Source of the DNA: a virus
Direction: 5' to 3' (one strand)
Virus genome (UHGV): UHGV-0124208
Length of the DNA stretch: 33,408 bases
Each line of letters begins with the position of its first letter. The stretch's first letter is position 1. Positions 20,521 through 32,783 of the stretch are shown piece after piece. Both the position numbers and the translations under genes were made by a program. Under the pieces are notes generated by a model. That model was not told the origin of the DNA and did no database searches. It saw only the letters and a program-made list of their open reading frames with translations.

Positions 20521-21573
20521 TTACGGGGTAATGCCAACCGCTGCCGCCACTTTGTCGCCACTTGGCAGCGTTGCCAGAGGATTGAAACGGAGCGCCGTTT
20601 CCAGATGATCTGGTGCCAGATGTGCGTAACGCATAGTCATTTTTATATCGTGGTGTCCGAGAATTTTTTGTAAGGCGAGAATGTTTCCACCCGACATCAT
20701 GAAGTGCGCCGCAAACGTATGGCGCAGAACGTGTGTGAGTTGACCGCGAGGGAGCACGATAGACGTTTTTTCCATCACGGATAAAAATTGAAAATAGCAG
20801 TCTGTAAAGAAATTGAACCCATCAAGCGCCATGATCTCTTCGTAAAGCTCTTTACTGATAGGGATGCTTCTGTTTTTCTTCCCCTTCGTTCTGACAAAGG
20901 TAATTCGGTATTTGGTCACCTGTGAGCGGGTAAGATTTACGGCTTCACGCCAGCGTGCGCCTGTGCTTAAGCATATCTTAACTACCAGTGCCAGAATTGG
21001 GTCCTGACGTTTGCAATCAGCCAGCAATTCAACAATCTGCTCATGGGTAAGCCATGCCATCTCTTTTTCTGCGATGGTGAATTTTCGCATGTTCTCCAGT
21101 GGGTTCGGATACGACCATTCGCCCAGACGGGATAGTTCGCTAAAAACACTACTTAGATAGCTTTGCTCCAGGTTAATGGTGACCGGGCTTGCTCCTTTCT
21201 TCCATTTCTCGCTGAAGTAGATCTCGCCTGTCAGGCGTTTATCTCGATAGTGGGCAAACATTTTAGAGGTGAGATCGGTTGCAAGAGGATTACCCAGAGC
21301 GTCAACCATCAACAGCAATTTGTCATAGACATGCTGCCCAGCTGTCAGAGATTTACCATGTAGTTTGAACCATAGCTCAACCACGTCTTTCAGTGTTCGA
21401 CGATCCACTGATTCACCCAGCCAGGGCTTTGCTTCGGTTTCTTCTATCGTGTGGCGCTCAAAAGCCAGAGCTTCGCCTTTGGTGGCGAATTGTTTACGCA
21501 CCCGACGCCCACTACGTCCGGCGGGGTAACATTCGCAAAGCCATTTTCCTGTGGTGAGTTTTCGTACTGCCAT
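20521..21573 (-). CDS. int: Tyrosine integrase
   Basis: 350-aa minus-strand ORF; the C-terminus has HVLRHTFAAHF...GHHDIKMTMRYAHL (the R..HxxR..Y tyrosine-recombinase signature); adjacent to attP as in P2. Confidence 0.9.
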   Translation of the reverse strand: MAVRKLTTGKWLCECYPAGRSGRRVRKQFATKGEALAFERHTIEETEAKPWLGESVDRRTLKDVVELWFKLHGKSLTAGQHVYDKLLLMVDALGNPLATDLTSKMFAHYRDKRLTGEIYFSEKWKKGASPVTINLEQSYLSSVFSELSRLGEWSYPNPLENMRKFTIAEKEMAWLTHEQIVELLADCKRQDPILALVVKICLSTGARWREAVNLTRSQVTKYRITFVRTKGKKNRSIPISKELYEEIMALDGFNFFTDCYFQFLSVMEKTSIVLPRGQLTHVLRHTFAAHFMMSGGNILALQKILGHHDIKMTMRYAHLAPDHLETALRFNPLATLPSGDKVAAAVGITP

Positions 21574-21646: not shown

Positions 21647-23416
21647 TCATACGTCAGGGGTAATCCAGTCGACTAAAGCCTCAATACTTTCGAAATCTGC
21701 ACAGATATCTGAAAGAGGTTGTGTATCTGCTTTTGTTTTGAAATCAGCCCATACTGATTCATTTTTTTCTGTAAGACCCAAATGGTTTTCTATCGAACCA
21801 TTTAGCCAAATCCAAATATTTGCATTTCTCAGTTTTGCGGCTAATGATGACAAAAATTCTCTGGCGCCGGGCTTTTGAGACATAATAGCAAATGCTTCAG
21901 CTGCGGTAGTGTTACTACCCTTTGTAGGCAAACCGGATCCATCGAGAGTGCATTCTCCATTAGCATGCATACTTCTCAAGATTTCTTTTAGTCGTAAAAT
22001 ATCCTCGTCATTATGTTCTAAGAAGTTGTTCCTTATTGCACCGCGGAACGCAAAATCTAAATCAACAATTGCTTTTGTAGGTATATCCATTGAATTTAGA
22101 ATTTGCATCGTTTTAGATATACTTTCAACGGACCCTGTTTCAATTAGTGCTATTTGCATCTGACCTAATGTTTTATTTTTAACTTTGTTAAAAATAAATG
22201 GGAGCAGAGTAGTCTCTGTTTTACCTTCTGTTAGTATTACATTGTTAGCAAACAAAACTTTTGAAGACTGTGTTAATGAAAATAAATGGGTTGCTTGTGC
22301 TGGTCGTTGTTCGATTACTTTATTGACTGCTTCTTTTAATGTTAATCTGCAATGAGTGCCACGCTGACTGTTTTTTCTGATTAACACAGTGTCTTTTGCT
22401 AAGTCAGAGGTAATCATTTGAGATGAATGGGTAGAGAAAATTATTTGATATCCATGATGAGATAGTGTTTTTAGAGATTCTCTAATTTGTTCGATAGCAA
22501 ATGGGTGAAGATATAACTCAGGTTCATCTATTAACAGTAGAGTAGTTGTTTTAATATCATCACCGTTGGTTATATCAGCTAAATGTCTTATTAGAGACAT
22601 CTGAATCGAACGCTGTGTGCCATGACCATAAGAAGAACAGTCACGAGCAATGCCGGGAAATGAATCTTCATATACTTTTACAGTCCCAGATTTAAATATA
22701 TCCTTGAAGTCAGGGAGTTCGAAGTGTAGTTTTAAACTTATCCCAGGGAAGAAATCAGCAAGTTTACTACTTATTGAATCATCAATATCATTGAGGTCCG
22801 ATATTCGTTTATTACCGGTTGCAGTCATTCTTCTATTAACGGCATTTAAATGGCTTAGTATCCTTTGAGTGTGCTTCTCTTCTATTTTGCAACTCAATTC
22901 TGCCAGCAACTTACCTATTGTAGTTCCTGTTTTTGATTTTGAAGAATCATCCGCTGCATTTTCCATTGCACCTATACGTATTGGGTCTGGAAATAAAGCT
23001 TTTATCGCATTCTCAATACCCGTTGGTGATGTCCTGAATTCGTTATTTTCTGGGTTTTTAATTAATAATCTGACGTCTTTTGCACTTTGAGCACCAACAG
23101 TCTGTTGACGCTTAAATATCAATACCCCATCAATAATGTAGGGTGAAATTCTAGTTCTGTTTTCTTCTGTTAAAGCTGACAAAATATCTTCAGTAATACC
23201 CTTAACTGTACCTATAACTTCTATAGGGTTATCTGGATTAGTATAATCATCAGAGGACAAAAGTTTTTTCTTAAAAAGCCATTCAATAGCATTTAAAATC
23301 GTTGACTTACCAGCATTGTTGTAACCGATTAAAGGCGTGAATGAAGAAAAATTGATATCAATATCTTTGCAAGATCTAAAGTTTTTTATAGAAATCTTTG
23401 AAAGATGATGATTCAT
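21647..23416 (-). CDS. old: OLD-family ATP-dependent nuclease (N-terminal ABC-type ATPase + C-terminal Toprim), P2 Old-like, single-gene
   Basis: 589-aa ORF. N-terminal Walker A in ISIKNFRSCK...LIGYNNAGKSTILNAI; central FGHGTQRSIQM and LLIDEPELYLHP (Walker B-like); C-terminal VILTEGKTET...VDLDF Toprim-like acidic motifs. AT-rich relative to flanks. Located between cI and int. Confidence 0.75.
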   Translation of the reverse strand: MNHHLSKISIKNFRSCKDIDINFSSFTPLIGYNNAGKSTILNAIEWLFKKKLLSSDDYTNPDNPIEVIGTVKGITEDILSALTEENRTRISPYIIDGVLIFKRQQTVGAQSAKDVRLLIKNPENNEFRTSPTGIENAIKALFPDPIRIGAMENAADDSSKSKTGTTIGKLLAELSCKIEEKHTQRILSHLNAVNRRMTATGNKRISDLNDIDDSISSKLADFFPGISLKLHFELPDFKDIFKSGTVKVYEDSFPGIARDCSSYGHGTQRSIQMSLIRHLADITNGDDIKTTTLLLIDEPELYLHPFAIEQIRESLKTLSHHGYQIIFSTHSSQMITSDLAKDTVLIRKNSQRGTHCRLTLKEAVNKVIEQRPAQATHLFSLTQSSKVLFANNVILTEGKTETTLLPFIFNKVKNKTLGQMQIALIETGSVESISKTMQILNSMDIPTKAIVDLDFAFRGAIRNNFLEHNDEDILRLKEILRSMHANGECTLDGSGLPTKGSNTTAAEAFAIMSQKPGAREFLSSLAAKLRNANIWIWLNGSIENHLGLTEKNESVWADFKTKADTQPLSDICADFESIEALVDWITPDV

Positions 23417-23459: not shown

Positions 23460-24398
23460 TTATTGTATTGTTAAGATAATGCTGGCTATAATTTGAATAT
23501 CCTCAATGGAACACTCAAAATCCTTACTCCCACCAGAAACAAGAATTTTGTTCTTAGGTAAACGAGTTAACTCTTTTAAAGATAACTCATTGTCAATTCC
23601 TACTAACCATTTTCCATCTCTAATTAGGTGAAATTCTTTATCACATATGACATGTTTTTCTCCATTGCTTACAAACATCAAGCTGCTAGTTTCTTGCTTC
23701 GGAAGTAGACACCGATCCATGGATAAAAAACCTGACTCGACAAGCACGCCATTGACCAAATTGAACTTATTTAAAATTACAGTGTTTTCTTCTTGTGAAC
23801 TATTTGGTGTTTCGATTCCTGTAACTAGCCAGGCGAGATCCGCTTTGGTTTCTAATGCGCATTTAATCACCCAATCCGCAGGGAAAGAATCTCGCATGTA
23901 TCGTGTGGCTAATGTGCTTTTTGAAATACCAAGGTGGTCGGCTAAGGCTTGGCGGGTTTTAAACCCGTAAGCATTAACAATCCTCTCTATCGCGGCTTTT
24001 CCTCCGTTAGTAAGCTCAATGTGATTCTCAATGCGGCGCTTAAAGGATGATTGATGAGCGTTGCTGTTAAACCCCTCATGTGGGACTGTTTCATCATGTT
24101 GTTCCACATAAGGGGGGAAACTTTCTTCTGCATTGTTAGAACCAAAGGCCAGCCATTCTAGGGATGCGCCAGTTTCCATTGAACATATAACAACCCAATC
24201 AGCAGGGAAGGTATCGCGTGCATATCTATTAGCCATTGTGCTTTGTGAAATACCAAGATGCTTACAGAAGGCTTGGCGTGATTTGAAACCATAGGCCTTG
24301 AGTATCCTCTCAATGACTTTTTGCCCTCCACGATTCTGCATGACCATAGCTTTCAGACTATCTTCAATATGGCGAAATGTGATTTTTTGAGTTGACAT
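23460..24398 (-). CDS. cI: Immunity repressor CI, coliphage 186 type, with a tandemly duplicated N-terminal DNA-binding domain
   Basis: 312-aa ORF. Residues about 28-85 (VIERILKAYGFKSRQAFCKHLGISQSTMANRYARDTFPADWVVICSMETGASLEWLAFG) and about 128-185 (AIERIVNAYGFKTRQALADHLGISKSTLATRYMRDSFPADWVIKCALETKADLAWLVTG) are two copies of the 186 CI N-terminal domain motif; about 125-aa C-terminal domain. Divergent from apl-cII. Confidence 0.75.
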   Translation of the reverse strand: MSTQKITFRHIEDSLKAMVMQNRGGQKVIERILKAYGFKSRQAFCKHLGISQSTMANRYARDTFPADWVVICSMETGASLEWLAFGSNNAEESFPPYVEQHDETVPHEGFNSNAHQSSFKRRIENHIELTNGGKAAIERIVNAYGFKTRQALADHLGISKSTLATRYMRDSFPADWVIKCALETKADLAWLVTGIETPNSSQEENTVILNKFNLVNGVLVESGFLSMDRCLLPKQETSSLMFVSNGEKHVICDKEFHLIRDGKWLVGIDNELSLKELTRLPKNKILVSGGSKDFECSIEDIQIIASIILTIQ

Positions 24399-26290: not shown

Positions 26291-27144
26291 GCACCATCCT
26301 GAAATGGGCGGGAAATAAAACCGCAATTATGTCCGAACTGAAAAAACACCTTCCTGCTGGCCCGCGACTGGTTGAACCTTTCGCGGGTTCCTGTGCTGTG
26401 ATGATGGAGACGGATTATCCAAGCTATCTGGTTGCGGATATTAATCCTGATTTAATCAACCTCTATAAAAAGGTTGCCGCTGATTGTGAATCGTTTATAT
26501 CTCGCGCCAGAGTTTTATTTGAGATCGCAAACAGGGAGGTGGCTTATTACAACATAAGGCAGGAGTTTAATTACTCCACTGAAATTACTGATTTCATGAA
26601 AGCGGTATATTTCCTGTATCTCAATCGTCACGGTTACCGTGGTTTATGTCGCTATAACAAGAGCAGGCATTTCAACATTCCCTACGGTAATTATAAAAAT
26701 CCGTATTTCCCTGAAAAAGAACTTCGCACATTTGCAGAAAAAGCCCAGCGAGCAACGTTTGTCTGCGCCAGCTTTGATGAAACGCTGGCGATGTTGAAGG
26801 CGGGGGATGTGGTGTATTGCGATCCGCCGTATGACGGTACGTTTTCCGGCTATCACACTGATGGTTTCACTGAAGATGACCAGTATCACCTGGCATCCGT
26901 TCTTGAACATCGGTCATCAGAAGGACATCCGGTCATTGTTTCTAACAATGACACATCCCTGATTCGTTCGCTGTATCGCAATTTTACTCACCACTATATC
27001 AAGGCAAAACGCAGCATCGGCGTGTCAGCTGGCGAGGGTAAATCTGCAACAGAAATCATTGCTGTTTCCGGGCCGAGTTGCTGGTTGGGATTTGATCCTT
27101 CGCGTGGCGTGGATAGTTCTGCCGTGTACGGAGTGTGTGTATGA
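26287..27144 (+). CDS. DNA N6-adenine methyltransferase (Dam/D12 class)
   Basis: From ATG 26287: [11 protein letters not shown]...EPFAGSCAV... (AdoMet-binding region) and VYCDPPYDG (DPPY catalytic motif); overlaps the upstream stop (ATGA) and the A start. Confidence 0.85.
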
Positions 27145-29555
27145 GTCATGACGATATGAACAATTGCAGCGGCTTTAACGAGGCCGCCGCAGCATTTTCA
27201 TGGAACGGCCCGAAAAAGGCCATTAACCCTTATCTGGACCCGGCGGAAGTTGCGCCGGAGTCTGCACTTTCAAACCTGATCACTCTGTACGCTGCCGATA
27301 ACGAGCAGGAACAACTGCGCCGCGAGGCACTGAGTGAGCAGGTCTGGGAGCGTTATTTCTTTAATGAATCCCGTGATCCTGTCCAGCGCGAAATGGAGCA
27401 GGATAAGCTCATTAGCCGGGCAAAGCTGGCGCATGAGCAGCAGCGTTTTAATCCGGACATGGTCATTCTGGCGGACGTAAACGCCCAGCCTTCCCATATC
27501 AGCAAGCCGCTGATGCAACGTATTGAATACTTCAGCAGCCTGGGCAGGCCAAAGGCTTATTCCCGCTATTTGCGTGAGACGATTAAGCCATGTCTGGAGC
27601 GACTGGATTGTGTACGTGACAGTCAGCTATCTGTTTCTTTCCGTTTTATGGCAAGCCATCAAGGGCTGGAGGGTCTGCTGATCCTGCCTGAAATGAGCCA
27701 GGATCAGGTGAAACGCCTGTCCACCCTGGTAGCAGCGCATATGAGCATGTGTCTTGAGGACGCTTGTGGTGATTTGTATGCCACCGATGACGTTAAGCCA
27801 GAAGAAATCCGCAAGACATGGGAAAAGGTGGCAGCGGAAACCCTGCGTCTGGATGTTATCCCGCCTGCGTTTGAGAAACTTCGTCGGAAAAGAAACCGCC
27901 GCAAACCAGTGCCCTATGAACTCATCCCGGGTTCGCTGGCGCGTATGTTGTGTGCCGACTGGTGGTATCGGAAATTATGGAAGATGCGTTGCGAATGGCG
28001 GGAAGAGCAGTTGCGTGCTGTCTGCCTGGTCAGCAAAAAAGCATCCCCCTATGTCAGCTATGAAGCCGTGATGCATAAACGTGAGCAGCGCCGTAAGTCG
28101 CTGGAGTTTTTTCGTTCTCATGAACTGGTGAACGAAGACGGCGACACGCTGGATATGGAAGATGTGGTAAACGCCAGCAGCAGCAACCCGGCGCATCGCC
28201 GCAATGAGATGATGGCCTGTGTTAAAGGTCTGGAGCTTATCGCGGAAATGCGCAGTGACTGTGCCGTTTTCTACACTATCACCTGTCCGTCGCGTTTCCA
28301 TTCCACGCTCAATAACGGCAGACCAAACCCGACCTGGACAAACGCGACGGTAAGACAAAGTAGCGATTATCTGGTCGGCATGTTTGCTGCATTTCGTAAG
28401 GCTATGCATAAAGCCGAGTTGCGCTGGTATGGCGTGCGGGTAGCTGAGCCGCATCATGACGGTACTGTGCACTGGCATCTCATGTGTTTCATGCGTAAAA
28501 AAGACCGCCGCGCCATCACTGCATTACTGCGTAAGTTTGCCATCCGTGAAGACCGCGAGGAGCTGGGCAATAACACGGGACCACGCTTTAAGTCTGAGCT
28601 GATAAACCCGCGCAAAGGTACGCCAACAAGCTATATCGCGAAATACATCAGTAAGAACATTGACGGGCGTGGTCTGGCTGGGGAGATCAGCAAGGAAACG
28701 GGTAAATCCCTGCGTGATAACGCTGAATACGTTAATGCCTGGGCGTCTCTGCATCGTGTTCAGCAATTCCGCTTCTTTGGCATTCCGGGGCGTCAGGCTT
28801 ACCGTGAACTGCGATTGCTGGCTGGTCAGGCGGCAAGGCAACAGGGTGACAAAAAAGCAGGTGCGCCGGTACTGGATAACCCGCGTCTTGATGCAATCCT
28901 GGCTGCTGCTGATGCTGGTTGTTTTGCCACCTACATCATGAAGCAGGGCGGCGTTCTGGTTCCCCGCAAATATCACCTCATCAGAACTGCTTATGAAATC
29001 AACGAAGAACCGACCGCATATGGCGATCACGGTATTCGTATTTATGGCATCTGGTCACCCATTGCAGAGGGCAAGATCTGCACTCATGCGGTGAAGTGGA
29101 AAATGGTTCGTAAGGCCGTTGACGTTCAGGAGGCGGCAGCCGACCAGGGCGCTTGCGCCCCTTGGACTCGTGGCAATAACTGTCCCCTTGCTGAAAATTT
29201 GAACCAACAAGGGAAAGACAAATCAGCTGATGGGGACTCCAGAACGGATATTACCCGTATGAATGACAAGGAGTTGCACGATTACCTGCACAGTATGAGC
29301 AAAAAAGAGCGCCGGGAACTGGCTGCAAGGTTACGCCAGGTGAAACCGAAACGGCGTAAAGACTACAAACAGCGAATTACAGACCATCAGCGACAGCAGC
29401 TCGTCTATGAACTGAAGTCCAGGGGATTTGATGGCAGCGAGAAAGAAGTCGATTTGCTCCTTCGCGGCGGCAGTATTCCGTCAGGAGCAGGCCTGCGTAT
29501 CTTCTATCGGAACCAGCGTCTGAAGGAAGATGATAAGTGGCGGAACCTGTATTAA
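27141..29555 (+). CDS. A: Replication initiator gpA (rolling-circle HUH endonuclease)
   Basis: About 804-aa ORF (ATG 27141) containing [13 protein letters not shown] (HUH-type motif of P2 gpA-family initiators); position as P2 A. Confidence 0.85.
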
Positions 29556-29649
29556 TTACGCGGGTTAACAATTCGTGCTCTTAATAATACCAGGCATATC
29601 AGGCCGATGAACGTAAAAAAACGTTTTACATCAGTAAGATTATTATATA

Positions 29650-29665
29650 CTGTAAATATAAACAG
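29650..29665. promoter_or_regulatory. LexA operator (SOS box) upstream of the DinI/Tum-like operon
   Basis: CTGTAAATATAAACAG = CTGT-N8-ACAG with an AT-rich centre, flanked TA...TG (consensus TACTGTATATATATACAGTA); 43 bp upstream of ATG 29708; a -35-like TTTACA at 29625-29630. Confidence 0.75.
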
Positions 29666-29707
29666 TGGTTATGTATACAGTATTGTTTTGGTGTCATAGG
29701 AGGAAAG

Positions 29708-29896
29708 ATGCAGGACTATTTTTTGGAGTCTTTGAAGCTCCAGCGCATTGATTTTTTTCTTAAGCTTGTAGCGGCTAGTGAGTGTAGTGATGAAGAGAAG
29801 GGGCTGGCTCTGCAGTGGGTTTCTGAATTGACTGATGAACTCATGGCAAAAATCAGAAGCCACGAATACAACCGCTCAATGGATGTCATCAGCTGA
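29708..29896 (+). CDS. Small SOS-regulated protein, first gene of the Tum-like module (function unknown; candidate antirepressor component)
   Basis: 62-aa ORF with RBS AGGAGG, directly downstream of the LexA box. Confidence 0.55.
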   Translation: MQDYFLESLKLQRIDFFLKLVAASECSDEEKGLALQWVSELTDELMAKIRSHEYNRSMDVIS

Positions 29897-29906
29897 GGTG
29901 ACTTTT

Positions 29907-30140
29907 ATGCGCATTGAAATAATGATCGATAAAGAGCAGAAGATTAGCCAGTCTACCCTGGACGCACTTGAATCCGAGCTTTACCGCAATCTGCGCCCCC
30001 TGTATCCCAAAACGGTAATTCGCATTCGCAAAGGTAGCTCTAACGGTGTGGAACTAACCGGACTGCAACTGGATGAAGAAAGAAAACAAGTGATGAAAAT
30101 TATGCAGAAGGTGTGGGAGGACGACAGCTGGCTGCATTAA
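29907..30140 (+). CDS. DinI-family protein (Tum C-terminal-domain-like)
   Basis: From ATG 29907: MRIEIMIDKEQKISQSTLDALESELYRNLRPLYPKTVIRIRKGSSNGVELTGLQLDEERKQVMKIMQKVWEDDSWLH, which aligns by eye with E. coli DinI (MRIEVTIAK...; ...ILQETWESADDW). Confidence 0.75.
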   Translation: MRIEIMIDKEQKISQSTLDALESELYRNLRPLYPKTVIRIRKGSSNGVELTGLQLDEERKQVMKIMQKVWEDDSWLH

Positions 30141-30332
30141 GAAATGTTGCCCCCAGGAGGATTCATTCTGATGGGGGCTAGTTTGGGCAATGAGTGAAAT
30201 AAGGCGTAAGGTGGGCGGTTATTTTGATAAGTGATCGTCCGCTTTGTGTCAGAAGCAGAAGTGGGAGTGTCTGAGACTCTCTAAAAGTTGATGATTCACT
30301 TACAAAACCATTTTCCTGATGGATGCTTACAC

Positions 30333-30668
30333 TTACGAATGATCATTCTGTTTAGTCTTCATGAGAAAATCCCGAATCTTTGCCAAGTTTGAATTTTCGG
30401 GGATTGAATCCATGTACGGATCACGCTCAAACACTAATTGCTCAGATTCAACGAAAGCCTGCCACTCTACTGGGTCTAGCTCAAATCCCATTGCTGTCAT
30501 ATCACTTTCATCTTCCCCCTCGATCCAGTGGACTAAATAAAACAATTCATCATCAGGAGAATCATCCTCACCATCAACAATATCAACATCGGTTACAGTG
30601 ATACGTAGGGTGGGATCGATTTTTGAGACATAAATTCCTAACTGTGGTATAGGGGGAATATTGTTCAT
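30333..30668 (-). CDS. Highly acidic small protein of unknown function (accessory / moron gene)
   Basis: 111-aa minus-strand ORF with a strong RBS (AAAGGAGTTTCC before ATG); D/E-rich (e.g. DVDIVDGEDDSPDDE, EGEDESD); AT-rich; lies between the DinI-like gene and the putative cos site. Confidence 0.65.
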   Translation of the reverse strand: MNNIPPIPQLGIYVSKIDPTLRITVTDVDIVDGEDDSPDDELFYLVHWIEGEDESDMTAMGFELDPVEWQAFVESEQLVFERDPYMDSIPENSNLAKIRDFLMKTKQNDHS

Positions 30669-31047
30669 GGAAACTCCTTTTATTGGTGTTTGCTATTTGA
30701 ATAAAAATACGCCAAACAGAGTGTTAACTGTGAATATGGAAAGAATCGTTGTAAGTACCCCGCTTAGGTGTCCCATTCTATTTTAGAGGTTCTCGTGCAT
30801 ATGGATTATGTTATCTGAAAGTTAACTTCCGCTTCCCGTTCACAGCGAACATTCATCTTTGTAAACCCGTATGATCCGTTTTTCAAGTGGCCATTCAGAT
30901 ACGGATTTTCACTTCCTTGACAGTGCATGACTATGCTGCATGAAATCGCATGATCGATTGAGGATCGTCTTTGCTCAGATCCGCCAGAACTGGCGGGCTT
31001 TTGCTCATGTCATGCATGTGCATGAAAACCACTGCATAAAGCGGGCA

Positions 31048-31066
31048 GGCGTGGCGGGGATACGAG
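31048..31066. other. Candidate cos (cohesive-end) site
   Basis: GGCGTGGCGGGGATACGAG: the first 13 nt match the 19-nt cohesive end I recall for 186 (GGCGTGGCGGGGAAAGCAT; P2 GGCGAGGCGGGGAAAGCAC). Lies in the only sizeable non-coding stretch between A and Q. The last 6 nt differ, so the exact ends are uncertain. Confidence 0.45.
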
Positions 31067-31155
31067 CGCGCGCTGATGGGGGACGCAGTGCTTTTGGCAT
31101 AGTTATGAGGTAGAATTTCAAAATACTTTTTAGCGCTGTTGGAGGTATAGACAAA

Positions 31156-31701
31156 ATGGACGTTATAACTGGAGTTGCAGAGTTTTTTCGAAAAGTACCT
31201 GCAGCATTTCTTGTGGCTATTACATGTGTTTTAGGTCTTATACTTTTTCTGCCAGACTCTTTGGCAGTAAAAGTGGCTGTTGATGGCTTTCGTAATGAGT
31301 ATAGGATTTTTATTGGACCTGCATTTTTACTGTCTGTATCTTATTTAGTTGCAAGAGTCTATCTCTCTTTCTATGACTTACTTGGTGAAAGGCAGGCTAA
31401 GAAGGTACGCACTTCCTACCTTGAGAAGCTAACAGCAGAAGAAAAAGGATATTTAAAGTCTTATATTACCGAAGGTGTTAATTCACTTATGTGTGGGCCT
31501 GAGGATGGGGTCATGGGGGGACTTGTGGCTAAGGGGATTACTTATAGAGCCACCAGTGTTGGGGATATGATCTACGGTTTTGCTTTCAACTTACAGCCAT
31601 GGGCGCGTGAACATTTAGAGAAAAATAGTCATTTATTAGATGGGGCTATTGGGCGTGCAATGACTCCAAGAGAAAAATTAAACTTTAGATTGGGACGCTA
31701 A
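31156..31701 (+). CDS. Membrane protein with two N-terminal TM helices, unknown function (accessory gene between cos and Q)
   Basis: 181-aa ORF with RBS GGAGG; hydrophobic segments AAFLVAITCVLGLILFLP and IFIGPAFLLSVSYLVARVYL followed by a soluble domain; AT-rich; followed by a strong hairpin. Confidence 0.65.
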   Translation: MDVITGVAEFFRKVPAAFLVAITCVLGLILFLPDSLAVKVAVDGFRNEYRIFIGPAFLLSVSYLVARVYLSFYDLLGERQAKKVRTSYLEKLTAEEKGYLKSYITEGVNSLMCGPEDGVMGGLVAKGITYRATSVGDMIYGFAFNLQPWAREHLEKNSHLLDGAIGRAMTPREKLNFRLGR

Positions 31702-31730
31702 CCAGTCACACATTACCAATGTGTGACTGG
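31702..31730. terminator. Perfect 13-bp stem / 3-nt loop hairpin between the convergent 181-aa gene and Q (putative bidirectional terminator)
   Basis: CCAGTCACACATT-acc-AATGTGTGACTGG read directly, followed on the plus strand by a T-rich run (TGGTGGTTATTTCTTTTATT). Confidence 0.6.
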
Positions 31731-31745
31731 TGGTGGTTATTTCTT

Positions 31746-32783
31746 TTATTCAATGTCAAATTTATATGGTTCAAAAGAAATAACCTTTTCCCCCAACCAC
31801 TCATTTAGTTCTTCGAGTCTTTTTTGTAGCGGTATTAACTCATTACGGACAAAGACGCGGCTGGCTTTTTCCACATCACCAAAGCCGCCGGTATTGTTGG
31901 GAATAATCCCCATCATCTGCGGCGGTACGCGGTGTGCTGCCATCATGTCATCGCGGCTCACGTTCTTAATGTTCAGAAATTCATCCTTTGCTGCAACCTC
32001 AGACAGTGGGATGATCTGGATGCCGTCTTTTTTACCGTTGGGCGAATACATAAACAGGTTGCGGAAGTTGCCCGGACCTTTGGCGCTTTTCATCGCGTTG
32101 CGGAGGTTGTTCACATCCTCCTGGTTCTGCGCGGCGTCAGTCATATACATGATGAAGCCTGCATGGCTGCCGTTGATGTAATACTTACGGCGGAACAGCG
32201 TGGCGGACTCGTTGAGCAGGGCTGACGGAATGGCAGAAAGATAACCGGGCAGGCCGTAGATCTCCTGATTAATATCCGGTTCCATCAGATGAAAAATGCT
32301 GCCTTTCGTGAACTGATACGGCTGGGTTGTCATACCGTATTGCACAAACCAGTAGGTATCCAGGTCTAATCCGCGTCGGGTGTATTTTGCCAGCGCAGGT
32401 TCAAGGGCGATCACTTCACCGAAGCGGTTCGTGCGTTTCTCCAGATAGGCATTGCCAAATACCAGATAGTCCTGCACAAAACGCGAAAAAGCCTGCTGGC
32501 TGAGCAGAGGATGAGGGATATAGGTACTGGTCAGAATGTTACACTTTACTGCAATCGGGGAACTGTGATGCACGGCAGCGCGGAAGGTGCGCGCCAGTCC
32601 GTTAAAGCTGACGGGAGGCTCATACCAGCGGTCCATCTGTACGCATTCCACATAGTCCAGCAGTTCACGGCGGTCCAGAACAGGAACGGGATCGCCGAAG
32701 CTGAATGCTTCGGCTGTAGTTTGACTTTTAAGCTGGATCTGATTCGTCGCCGCAGCGCGGTTCTTCTTACTCTTTCCCATCAA
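31746..32783 (-). CDS. Q: Portal protein gpQ
   Basis: 345-aa minus-strand ORF immediately downstream of, and overlapping, the terminase gene; size and order as P2 Q. Confidence 0.85.
   Translation of the reverse strand: MMGKSKKNRAAATNQIQLKSQTTAEAFSFGDPVPVLDRRELLDYVECVQMDRWYEPPVSFNGLARTFRAAVHHSSPIAVKCNILTSTYIPHPLLSQQAFSRFVQDYLVFGNAYLEKRTNRFGEVIALEPALAKYTRRGLDLDTYWFVQYGMTTQPYQFTKGSIFHLMEPDINQEIYGLPGYLSAIPSALLNESATLFRRKYYINGSHAGFIMYMTDAAQNQEDVNNLRNAMKSAKGPGNFRNLFMYSPNGKKDGIQIIPLSEVAAKDEFLNIKNVSRDDMMAAHRVPPQMMGIIPNNTGGFGDVEKASRVFVRNELIPLQKRLEELNEWLGEKVISFEPYKFDIE

Follow-up and report, generated by a model that had tools for sequence, protein, structure and literature searches.

An acidic DUF8087 gene in the gpA-gpQ hotspot of a P2-family prophage is an autonomous cassette with an origin in the lysogeny operon

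The gene at positions 30333 to 30668 (minus strand) of the virus genome UHGV-0124208, a stretch of 33,408 nucleotides (nt) that is called the window below, encodes a very acidic protein of 111 amino acids (aa), a predicted small β-barrel of the family DUF8087 (PF26332; phrog_17127). The surrounding genes place the window in a P2-family prophage of the 186/Fels-2 type. Comparison with other copies shows that this is an autonomous accessory gene under selection, which escaped from the repressor-integrase lysogeny operon of P2-like phages, landed in the hotspot between gpA and gpQ, and is independent of the cargo found beside it. The best explanation of its role, which is put forward tentatively, is that the product, made by the integrated element, serves as an acidic decoy that binds other proteins and acts in trans in conflicts.

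The open reading frame (ORF) begins with an ATG at 30668 to 30666, and a Shine-Dalgarno sequence, AAGGAG (30674 to 30679, minus strand), precedes it with a 5-nt spacer and is nearly invariant in seven copies of the cassette described below. Among these copies, which come from different genera, identity is 94 to 98% at codon positions 1 and 2 versus 78 to 92% at position 3, showing that purifying selection acts on the protein. The ORF is thus a genuine protein-coding gene and not a chance reading frame. It is AT-rich, with a G+C content of 40% compared with 51% for the whole window. The product contains 15 aspartates and 11 glutamates versus 4 lysines and 3 arginines, for a net charge of −19. 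Its computed isoelectric point (pI) of 4.05 is the floor of the calculator, and this strong acidity fits the range of about 3.8 to 5.5 that is quoted for DNA-mimic proteins (PMC2926617). The maximal Kyte-Doolittle mean over 19 residues is only 0.64, and a membrane segment is therefore absent. A preliminary description of this DNA had presented a leftward gene with its own strong Shine-Dalgarno sequence and a product rich in aspartate and glutamate without hydrophobic segments, all of which holds (26 acidic versus 7 basic residues), and its caution that no function can be assigned from the sequence was well placed.

The protein is an ordinary member of its family by sequence. The phrog_17127 profile matches it over residues 1 to 111 of 111 (E = 2e-70), every homologue, as well as the gene itself in called contigs, carries a precomputed PF26332 match, and RefSeq names the copies of the gene "DUF8087 domain-containing protein" or "hypothetical protein." Both DUF8087 and phrog_17127 are catalogued families without an assigned function. 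A search with the protein retrieved 61 protein clusters at an E value of ≤1e-3, and an exhaustive hidden Markov model (HMM) search of 1.84 billion representatives found 34 members, which makes the family small. Members from Enterobacterales are 103 to 111 aa long, and distant ones of 70 to 106 aa align only to residues 1 to 80. Across 32 sequences, down to about 30% identity, P8, G11, and W69 are invariant, and Y13, V25, V28, V46, D56, E63, and L78 are kept in at least 90%. Acidity is a feature of the whole family, with a median net charge of −15.5 and a median fraction of aspartate plus glutamate of 0.23 over 108 members. One distant subfamily (P0072 to P0075 and P0093 to P0110) carries a conserved basic N-terminal extension, MGQAKLRGSKEERIAQ, ahead of the acidic barrel; it has 7 lysines or arginines in 22 residues and is predicted, at low confidence, to be helical.

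Clear homology to a characterized unrelated family, the finding that the preliminary description had named as fatal to its proposal, was looked for and did not appear. A Pfam-A scan of the protein and 32 family members, made with a release that does not include the PF26332 model, gave nothing meaningful, and PADLOC and NCBIfam scans of the protein gave no match. The family profile found no relative in the PDB by sequence at an E value of ≤10, and literature searches on PF26332, DUF8087, phrog_17127, WP_001059831, and the locus tags of BL21 and REL606 returned nothing relevant.

Comparison with P2-like phages that lack the DUF8087 gene delimits an insertion at 30151 to 30921. These phages share the backbone with the window up to 30150 and again at 30922 to 31073, and the 771 bp between these points in the window correspond to 68 bp at the same place in phage vB_EcoM-813R9. 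The insertion holds a mobile cassette of 550 bp (30297 to 30846, minus strand), composed of the ORF with 178 bp upstream and 36 bp downstream. The cassette is 85 to 88% identical to DNA of Serratia, Symbiopectobacterium, Lonsdalea, and Proteus in unrelated contexts and is homologous to a copy in Morganella. The upstream region that moves with the gene (30669 to 30846, minus strand) consists of the last ∼11 codons of a lost ORF, with its stop at 30806, and 137 bp of noncoding DNA, which is conserved about as well as synonymous sites or slightly better. At the other end, the stop codon of the DUF8087 gene is overlapped by a dead remnant of the 5′ end of an integrase gene (int), reading MIIRKCKHPSGKWFCK* (30296 to 30346, minus strand). 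In other copies the start of int reads MIVRKHPSGKWLSECY, and a 6-nt duplication disrupts it in the window. The remnant is the scar of an ancestral junction between DUF8087 and int.

The junction itself is found intact elsewhere. In P2-like prophages of Klebsiella aerogenes, Enterobacter kobei, and Buttiauxella, the gene order is C repressor, Flk_N protein, DUF8087, and int, all in one direction, and the DUF8087 gene overlaps the start of int by 4 nt in locus L017 and by 14 nt in locus L030. P2-like contigs of IMG/VR with an S24-type repressor show a related arrangement, in which a Cro gene is followed by CI, in some cases a BRCT protein, DUF8087, in some cases a 124-aa protein, and int. The ancestral home of DUF8087 is thus the lysogeny operon, between repressor and integrase, and the copy in the window is a secondary relocation that carries the int scar along. 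The 178 bp upstream of the gene were considered as a remnant of the Klebsiella Flk_N gene, and this was rejected, as tblastn detected no such remnant. The Flk_N-domain protein that precedes DUF8087 (L016 to L020, 6343-6990; L030, 5341-5976; L011, 7341-7964) is 211 to 215 aa long and has a C-terminal membrane anchor. The motif GNxNRxxGRDxNEN occurs at its N terminus and also at the C terminus of the preceding C repressor.

Such an origin raises the question of whether the gene has a function of its own in the window, or is a hitchhiking relic of the lysogeny operon or originally a leader for the translational coupling of int. The int gene to which it would be coupled is dead here, and no clear promoter was found: a scan of 29500 to 31800 for consensus promoters was negative, and a looser scan gave only weak candidates, namely TTCACA-19-TATTTT ending 35 nt before the ATG and a −10-like hexamer, TAGAAT, ending 106 nt before it. 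No LexA box, for which the consensus is CTGT-N8-ACAG, was found upstream of DUF8087; an ACAG-N8-CTGT is present, in the wrong orientation. An Rfam scan of 29400 to 31900 gave no match. Against a relic stand the intact frame and the purifying selection in all cassette copies across genera, the conservation of the protein sequence itself down to ∼30% identity with P8, G11, and W69 invariant, and the presence of the exact 111-aa sequence in 19,248 blocks of an assembly index. A gene without a function of its own is accordingly a very unlikely description.

The slot in which the cassette landed is well known. In the window, the DUF8087 gene lies between the replication endonuclease gene A (Phage_GPA; 27135 to 29555) with the DinI-like gene, on one side, and the portal gene Q on the other, so that the earlier placement in the region where P2 carries tin and old is borne out. 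In E. coli, cargo in the gpA-gpQ hotspot comes in hundreds of alternative arrangements, and WP_001059831 is listed among the hotspot loci in Table S5A of the same survey as a "hypothetical" passenger (Rousset et al. 2022, PMC9122126). DUF8087 shares this slot with old and tin of P2 but sits on the constant DinI flank, not among the variable defense systems. The DinI-like (TumB-like) gene (29907 to 30140, plus strand) is the convergent left neighbor and belongs to the phage backbone, outside the cassette. On the right, a backbone element at 30922 to 31073, present with or without the cassette and containing terminator-like hairpins on both strands, bounds the cargo slot; it probably serves both to terminate the Tum/DinI operon and to delimit the slot. 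Beyond it, in the variable cargo slot, follows the divergent right neighbor, a gene of the SieB family (PF14163, E = 4.5e-25; 31156 to 31701, plus strand).

The cargo in this slot changes while the DUF8087 protein stays the same. In E. coli, the identical protein (WP_001059831.1 in BL21-Gold) is found between DinI and five alternative cargoes, as follows: retron Ec86 (St85 family) in B strains and in a strain labeled C, a reverse transcriptase of the retron Ec67 family, GmrSD in E. coli W, ParA plus SIR2, and the SieB-family gene of the window. The cargo always starts beyond the conserved 30922-31073 element. The converse also occurs, in that the SieB DNA is present at 100% identity in 21 complete E. 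coli genomes, one of which was inspected and has two other genes in place of the cassette; the GmrSD accession is also found in loci without WP_001059831, and one DinI allele occurs both with and without it. The combination of DUF8087 and SieB seen in the window was found in no complete E. coli genome.

These data bear on the proposal, also made in the preliminary description, that the protein is an immunity partner of a toxin, here an immunity protein or antitoxin for the adjacent cargo (SieB in the window, GmrSD or a retron effector elsewhere). Small acidic proteins often neutralize nucleases, and in the distant subfamily the DUF8087 gene stands directly upstream of an SRA-HNH nuclease. Five unrelated cargoes beside an identical protein, and SieB and GmrSD also occurring without it, show instead that it is not the partner of its neighbor, and the DUF8087 gene is moreover divergent from the cargo with the backbone element between them. 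The comparative sequence data largely refute an immunity partner, which is therefore extremely improbable. A specific link to retrons was likewise rejected, as they are only three of the neighbor types seen, and so was a link to membrane-protein neighbors (SieB, Flk_N, and the 127-aa and 87-aa proteins), as the copies in BL21 and E. coli W have no such neighbor.

The distribution of the cassette is strongly skewed toward integrated DNA. Of 5,426 complete E. coli genomes, 221 carry the 550-bp cassette, with 133 records at an identity of at least 99% and 82 at about 87%, and it is found in the laboratory strain BL21(DE3), in REL606-type B strains, and in E. coli W. BL21(DE3) (CP001509.3), where retron Ec86 is the immediate neighbor, and BL21-Gold both encode the identical protein. 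By contrast, tblastn with the protein found none in 50,697 phage records and one in 72,556 plasmids. The contexts seen are all integrated and comprise prophages, small elements with int and GPA, CP4-like islands or islands resembling integrative and conjugative elements, and the neighborhood of a filamentous prophage. The group with ∼87% identity (82 E. coli records) lies inside islands rich in insertion sequences. There, a conserved 127-aa protein with an N-terminal membrane helix (L028, 6446-6829; L009/L010, 8538-8921) comes after the cassette, and variable large helicase or tetratricopeptide repeat (TPR) genes come next.

This distribution bears on whether the protein is a DNA mimic acting at entry in the manner of Ocr or ArdA, blocking restriction-modification (R-M), BREX, or similar systems when the element arrives. 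Anti-restriction genes of the entry phase are typical of virulent phages and of the leading regions of plasmids. DUF8087 resembles Ocr (T7 gp0.3) and ArdA in being small, strongly negative, and carried on mobile elements, and such a role would suit its extreme and conserved acidity, the small soluble product with its own Shine-Dalgarno sequence, the spread of the cassette over unrelated mobile elements in many genera, and one copy that shares its island with an Antirestrict (PF03230) gene. It differs from them in its near-absence from sequenced phages and plasmids, set against its frequency in complete E. coli genomes, and in its ancestral seat, which is a lysogeny operon with repressor and integrase and not an early or leading region. 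No similarity in sequence or fold to Ocr, ArdA, Arn, or any solved mimic was found. Ocr has a helical fold and ArdA has three domains in an elongated shape, whereas the DUF8087 model is a β-barrel. When the comparison of a predicted structure with DNA-mimic folds that the preliminary description had called for was carried out, the barrel matched no known DNA mimic. Action at entry is thus unlikely. The restriction to integrated elements and the seat in a repressor-int operon favor a role in the resident state.

The fold of the protein was predicted with AlphaFold2 (AF2) from 29 homologues, with a mean pLDDT (predicted local distance difference test) of 76.6; the model was read as secondary structure and pLDDT. 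It contains strands at residues 11 to 15, 22 to 31, 43 to 50, 61 to 64, and 78 to 82, a helix at 66 to 76 between strands 4 and 5, and a C-terminal helix at 94 to 108, which gives the order β1-β2-β3-β4-helix-β5. A separate AF2 model of the MGQAK subfamily, which is ∼40% identical, has the identical order of elements and an extra N-terminal helix. The most acidic stretches, residues 32 to 41 and 50 to 57, lie largely within the predicted loops between strands 2 and 3 and between strands 3 and 4. The product is thus predicted to be a soluble, very acidic small β-barrel with two acidic loops and without a catalytic or DNA-binding signature.

The weak structural neighbors of the model are SH3/Tudor-like protein-binding barrels, and Foldseek found nothing in the PDB or BFVD at an E value of ≤0.001. 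DUF1653 (PDB 3BE3), FeoA, and the N-terminal Tudor-like domains of CarD/CdnL gave marginal scores at 7 to 13% identity, without support from Foldseek, and this likeness gives no ground for the transfer of function. A parallel is the CarS antirepressor of Myxococcus xanthus (PDB 2KSS), which, like DUF8087, is small and very acidic (pI ∼4); its SH3-like β-barrel is one that the DUF8087 model may resemble in topology. Acting as a decoy, CarS docks the helix with which a repressor recognizes DNA (PMC2926617). By analogy, DUF8087 could plausibly work in this way, with the invariant W69 and the conserved Y13 as candidates only for a docking of this kind.

The distant members of the family extend the link to integration. 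Every one on a sufficiently long contig is located in a small element with a tyrosine integrase, an HTH_17 protein (AlpA/Xis-like), Phage_GPA, and a defense cargo, the last being SRA-HNH, an SMEK_N protein, Hachiman, OLD plus UvrD, a BglII-type R-M system, TIR-STAND, or GmrSD_N. DUF8087 is the only gene common to these elements besides int, HTH_17, and GPA. It adjoins int and is divergent from the HTH_17-GPA operon in L015, L025, L038, L039, and L042. The small elements look like a coherent class of defense carriers related to P2-like replicons and are possibly satellites. They (L015, L021, L023 to L026, and L038 to L042) measure roughly 8 to 12 kb. Comparison of five HTH_17-DUF8087 intergenic regions (L015, 6560-7060; L025, 6570-7060; L038, 100-500; L039, 2050-2560; L042, 7380-8060) revealed a conserved inverted repeat, CTGTCTCC-N(14-17)-GGAGACAG, over the ribosome-binding site of HTH_17. 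A consensus TTGACA that faces DUF8087 is also kept in these regions, 250 to 330 nt before its ATG, which points to a long leader in the small elements.

This neighborhood speaks for a regulator intrinsic to the element, in which the decoy would sequester the element's own switch or directionality protein (Cox/Apl/AlpA-like HTH_17, or the arm-binding domain of the integrase) and so act as a protein-level immunity or anti-excision factor that keeps the element quiescent in its integrated state. In nearly all its native contexts, DUF8087 adjoins int or lies no more than one or two genes away, with the two overlaps of the int start noted above, and in P2-like phages whose repressors are of three different types, it occupies the repressor operon. 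In the small elements, its place opposite the HTH_17-GPA operon is where a repressor would sit, and CarS is an example of an acidic SH3-like barrel docking a recognition helix. The protein itself does not have the features of a recombination directionality factor. The Xis, Cox, Apl, and AlpA factors are encoded next to the integrase, as is DUF8087 in its native contexts, where it adjoins or overlaps int, but these factors are small basic helix-turn-helix (HTH) proteins, whereas DUF8087 matches no HTH family, has a net charge of −19, and is modeled as a β-barrel. The escaped cassette is kept at 85 to 100% identity amid unrelated switches and without its int, which is hard to fit with an element-specific partner. 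Most P2-like phages lack the gene, and in small elements everything is near int anyway. A purely intrinsic regulator is therefore judged to be a possibility of limited weight, rather unlikely as a full account.

A decoy acting in trans is the explanation preferred here, at low confidence. DUF8087 would bind and block a positively charged protein, and in view of the acidic barrel without a catalytic or DNA-binding signature, stoichiometric binding is the most likely mode; the target would probably be a nucleic-acid-binding protein. The decoy would be made by the resident, integrated element and not during entry. Because unrelated mobile elements with unrelated switches, in many genera of Enterobacterales, retain almost the same cassette, a target that is not specific to the element, acts in trans, and is shared across hosts is favored, and it could belong to the host or to competing elements. 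The protein would then be a conflict factor of the integrated state, serving the exclusion of competitors or the protection of the resident element. The family-wide acidity and the order of fold elements conserved in the two AF2 models are consistent with a decoy.

A more specific and bolder version is that DUF8087 is a protein-level "immunity" factor of P2-like phages and of the small, defense-carrying int/AlpA-like (HTH_17)/GPA elements, a class not described so far. It would be an acidic barrel that mimics DNA, captures an activator or excisionase of the AlpA/Cox type, whether its own or one from competing satellites and phages, and locks elements in the integrated state without binding DNA, and the escaped cassette in E. 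coli hotspots would block the excision or activation of satellites and phages in trans. This version is a long shot.

The window adds no new entity, as the exact protein is already in RefSeq and the family is catalogued. What is new are the limits of the cassette, the integrase scar, the sequence-based assignment of an origin in the lysogeny operon, its independence of five kinds of cargo, and a connection to the small int/HTH_17/GPA elements. DUF8087 is a common gene without an assigned function, a solved structure, or a literature of its own, located beside the much-studied retron Ec86, retron Ec67, and GmrSD, and the autonomy of the cassette matters to anyone who clones or interprets the neighboring systems of the hotspot. 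The conserved link to the lysogeny side is a concrete lead that can be tested cheaply in widely held strains. A role as a decoy, whether for a DNA-binding regulator or for a defense protein, would if confirmed bring a new fold to the few known inhibitors of this type. The small, defense-loaded int/HTH_17/GPA elements may merit a study of their own.

Several features of the window around the cassette are recorded here for completeness. The hairpins of the 30922-31073 element are at 30980 to 30997 on the plus strand and at 31044 to 31029 on the minus strand, and with the cassette inserted ahead of this element, read-through from DinI would run antisense over DUF8087. A 62-aa ORF lies near the DinI-like gene. 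The SieB-family superinfection-exclusion gene has a G+C content of 40% and no PADLOC match. Between its stop codon and that of the portal gene, at 31701 to 31731, there is a hairpin with a perfect 14-bp stem, likely a bidirectional terminator. The portal and terminase genes follow from 31746 on the minus strand.

The lysogeny region of the window contains the integrase gene at 20521 to 21573 and a 186-type CI repressor gene at 23460 to 24398 (minus strand). Between them, at 21647 to 23416 (minus strand), is a gene for a 589-aa nuclease of the OLD family (AAA_15 plus an OLD-like TOPRIM domain). The slot between repressor and int is therefore a second cargo slot, and it is the same slot that holds DUF8087 elsewhere. 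The CI repressor of the window is 312 aa long and consists of two tandem Phage_CI_repr HTH stretches and a CI C-terminal domain, compared with 189 aa for the BL21 homologue; a duplicated DNA-binding domain is unusual in an immunity repressor.
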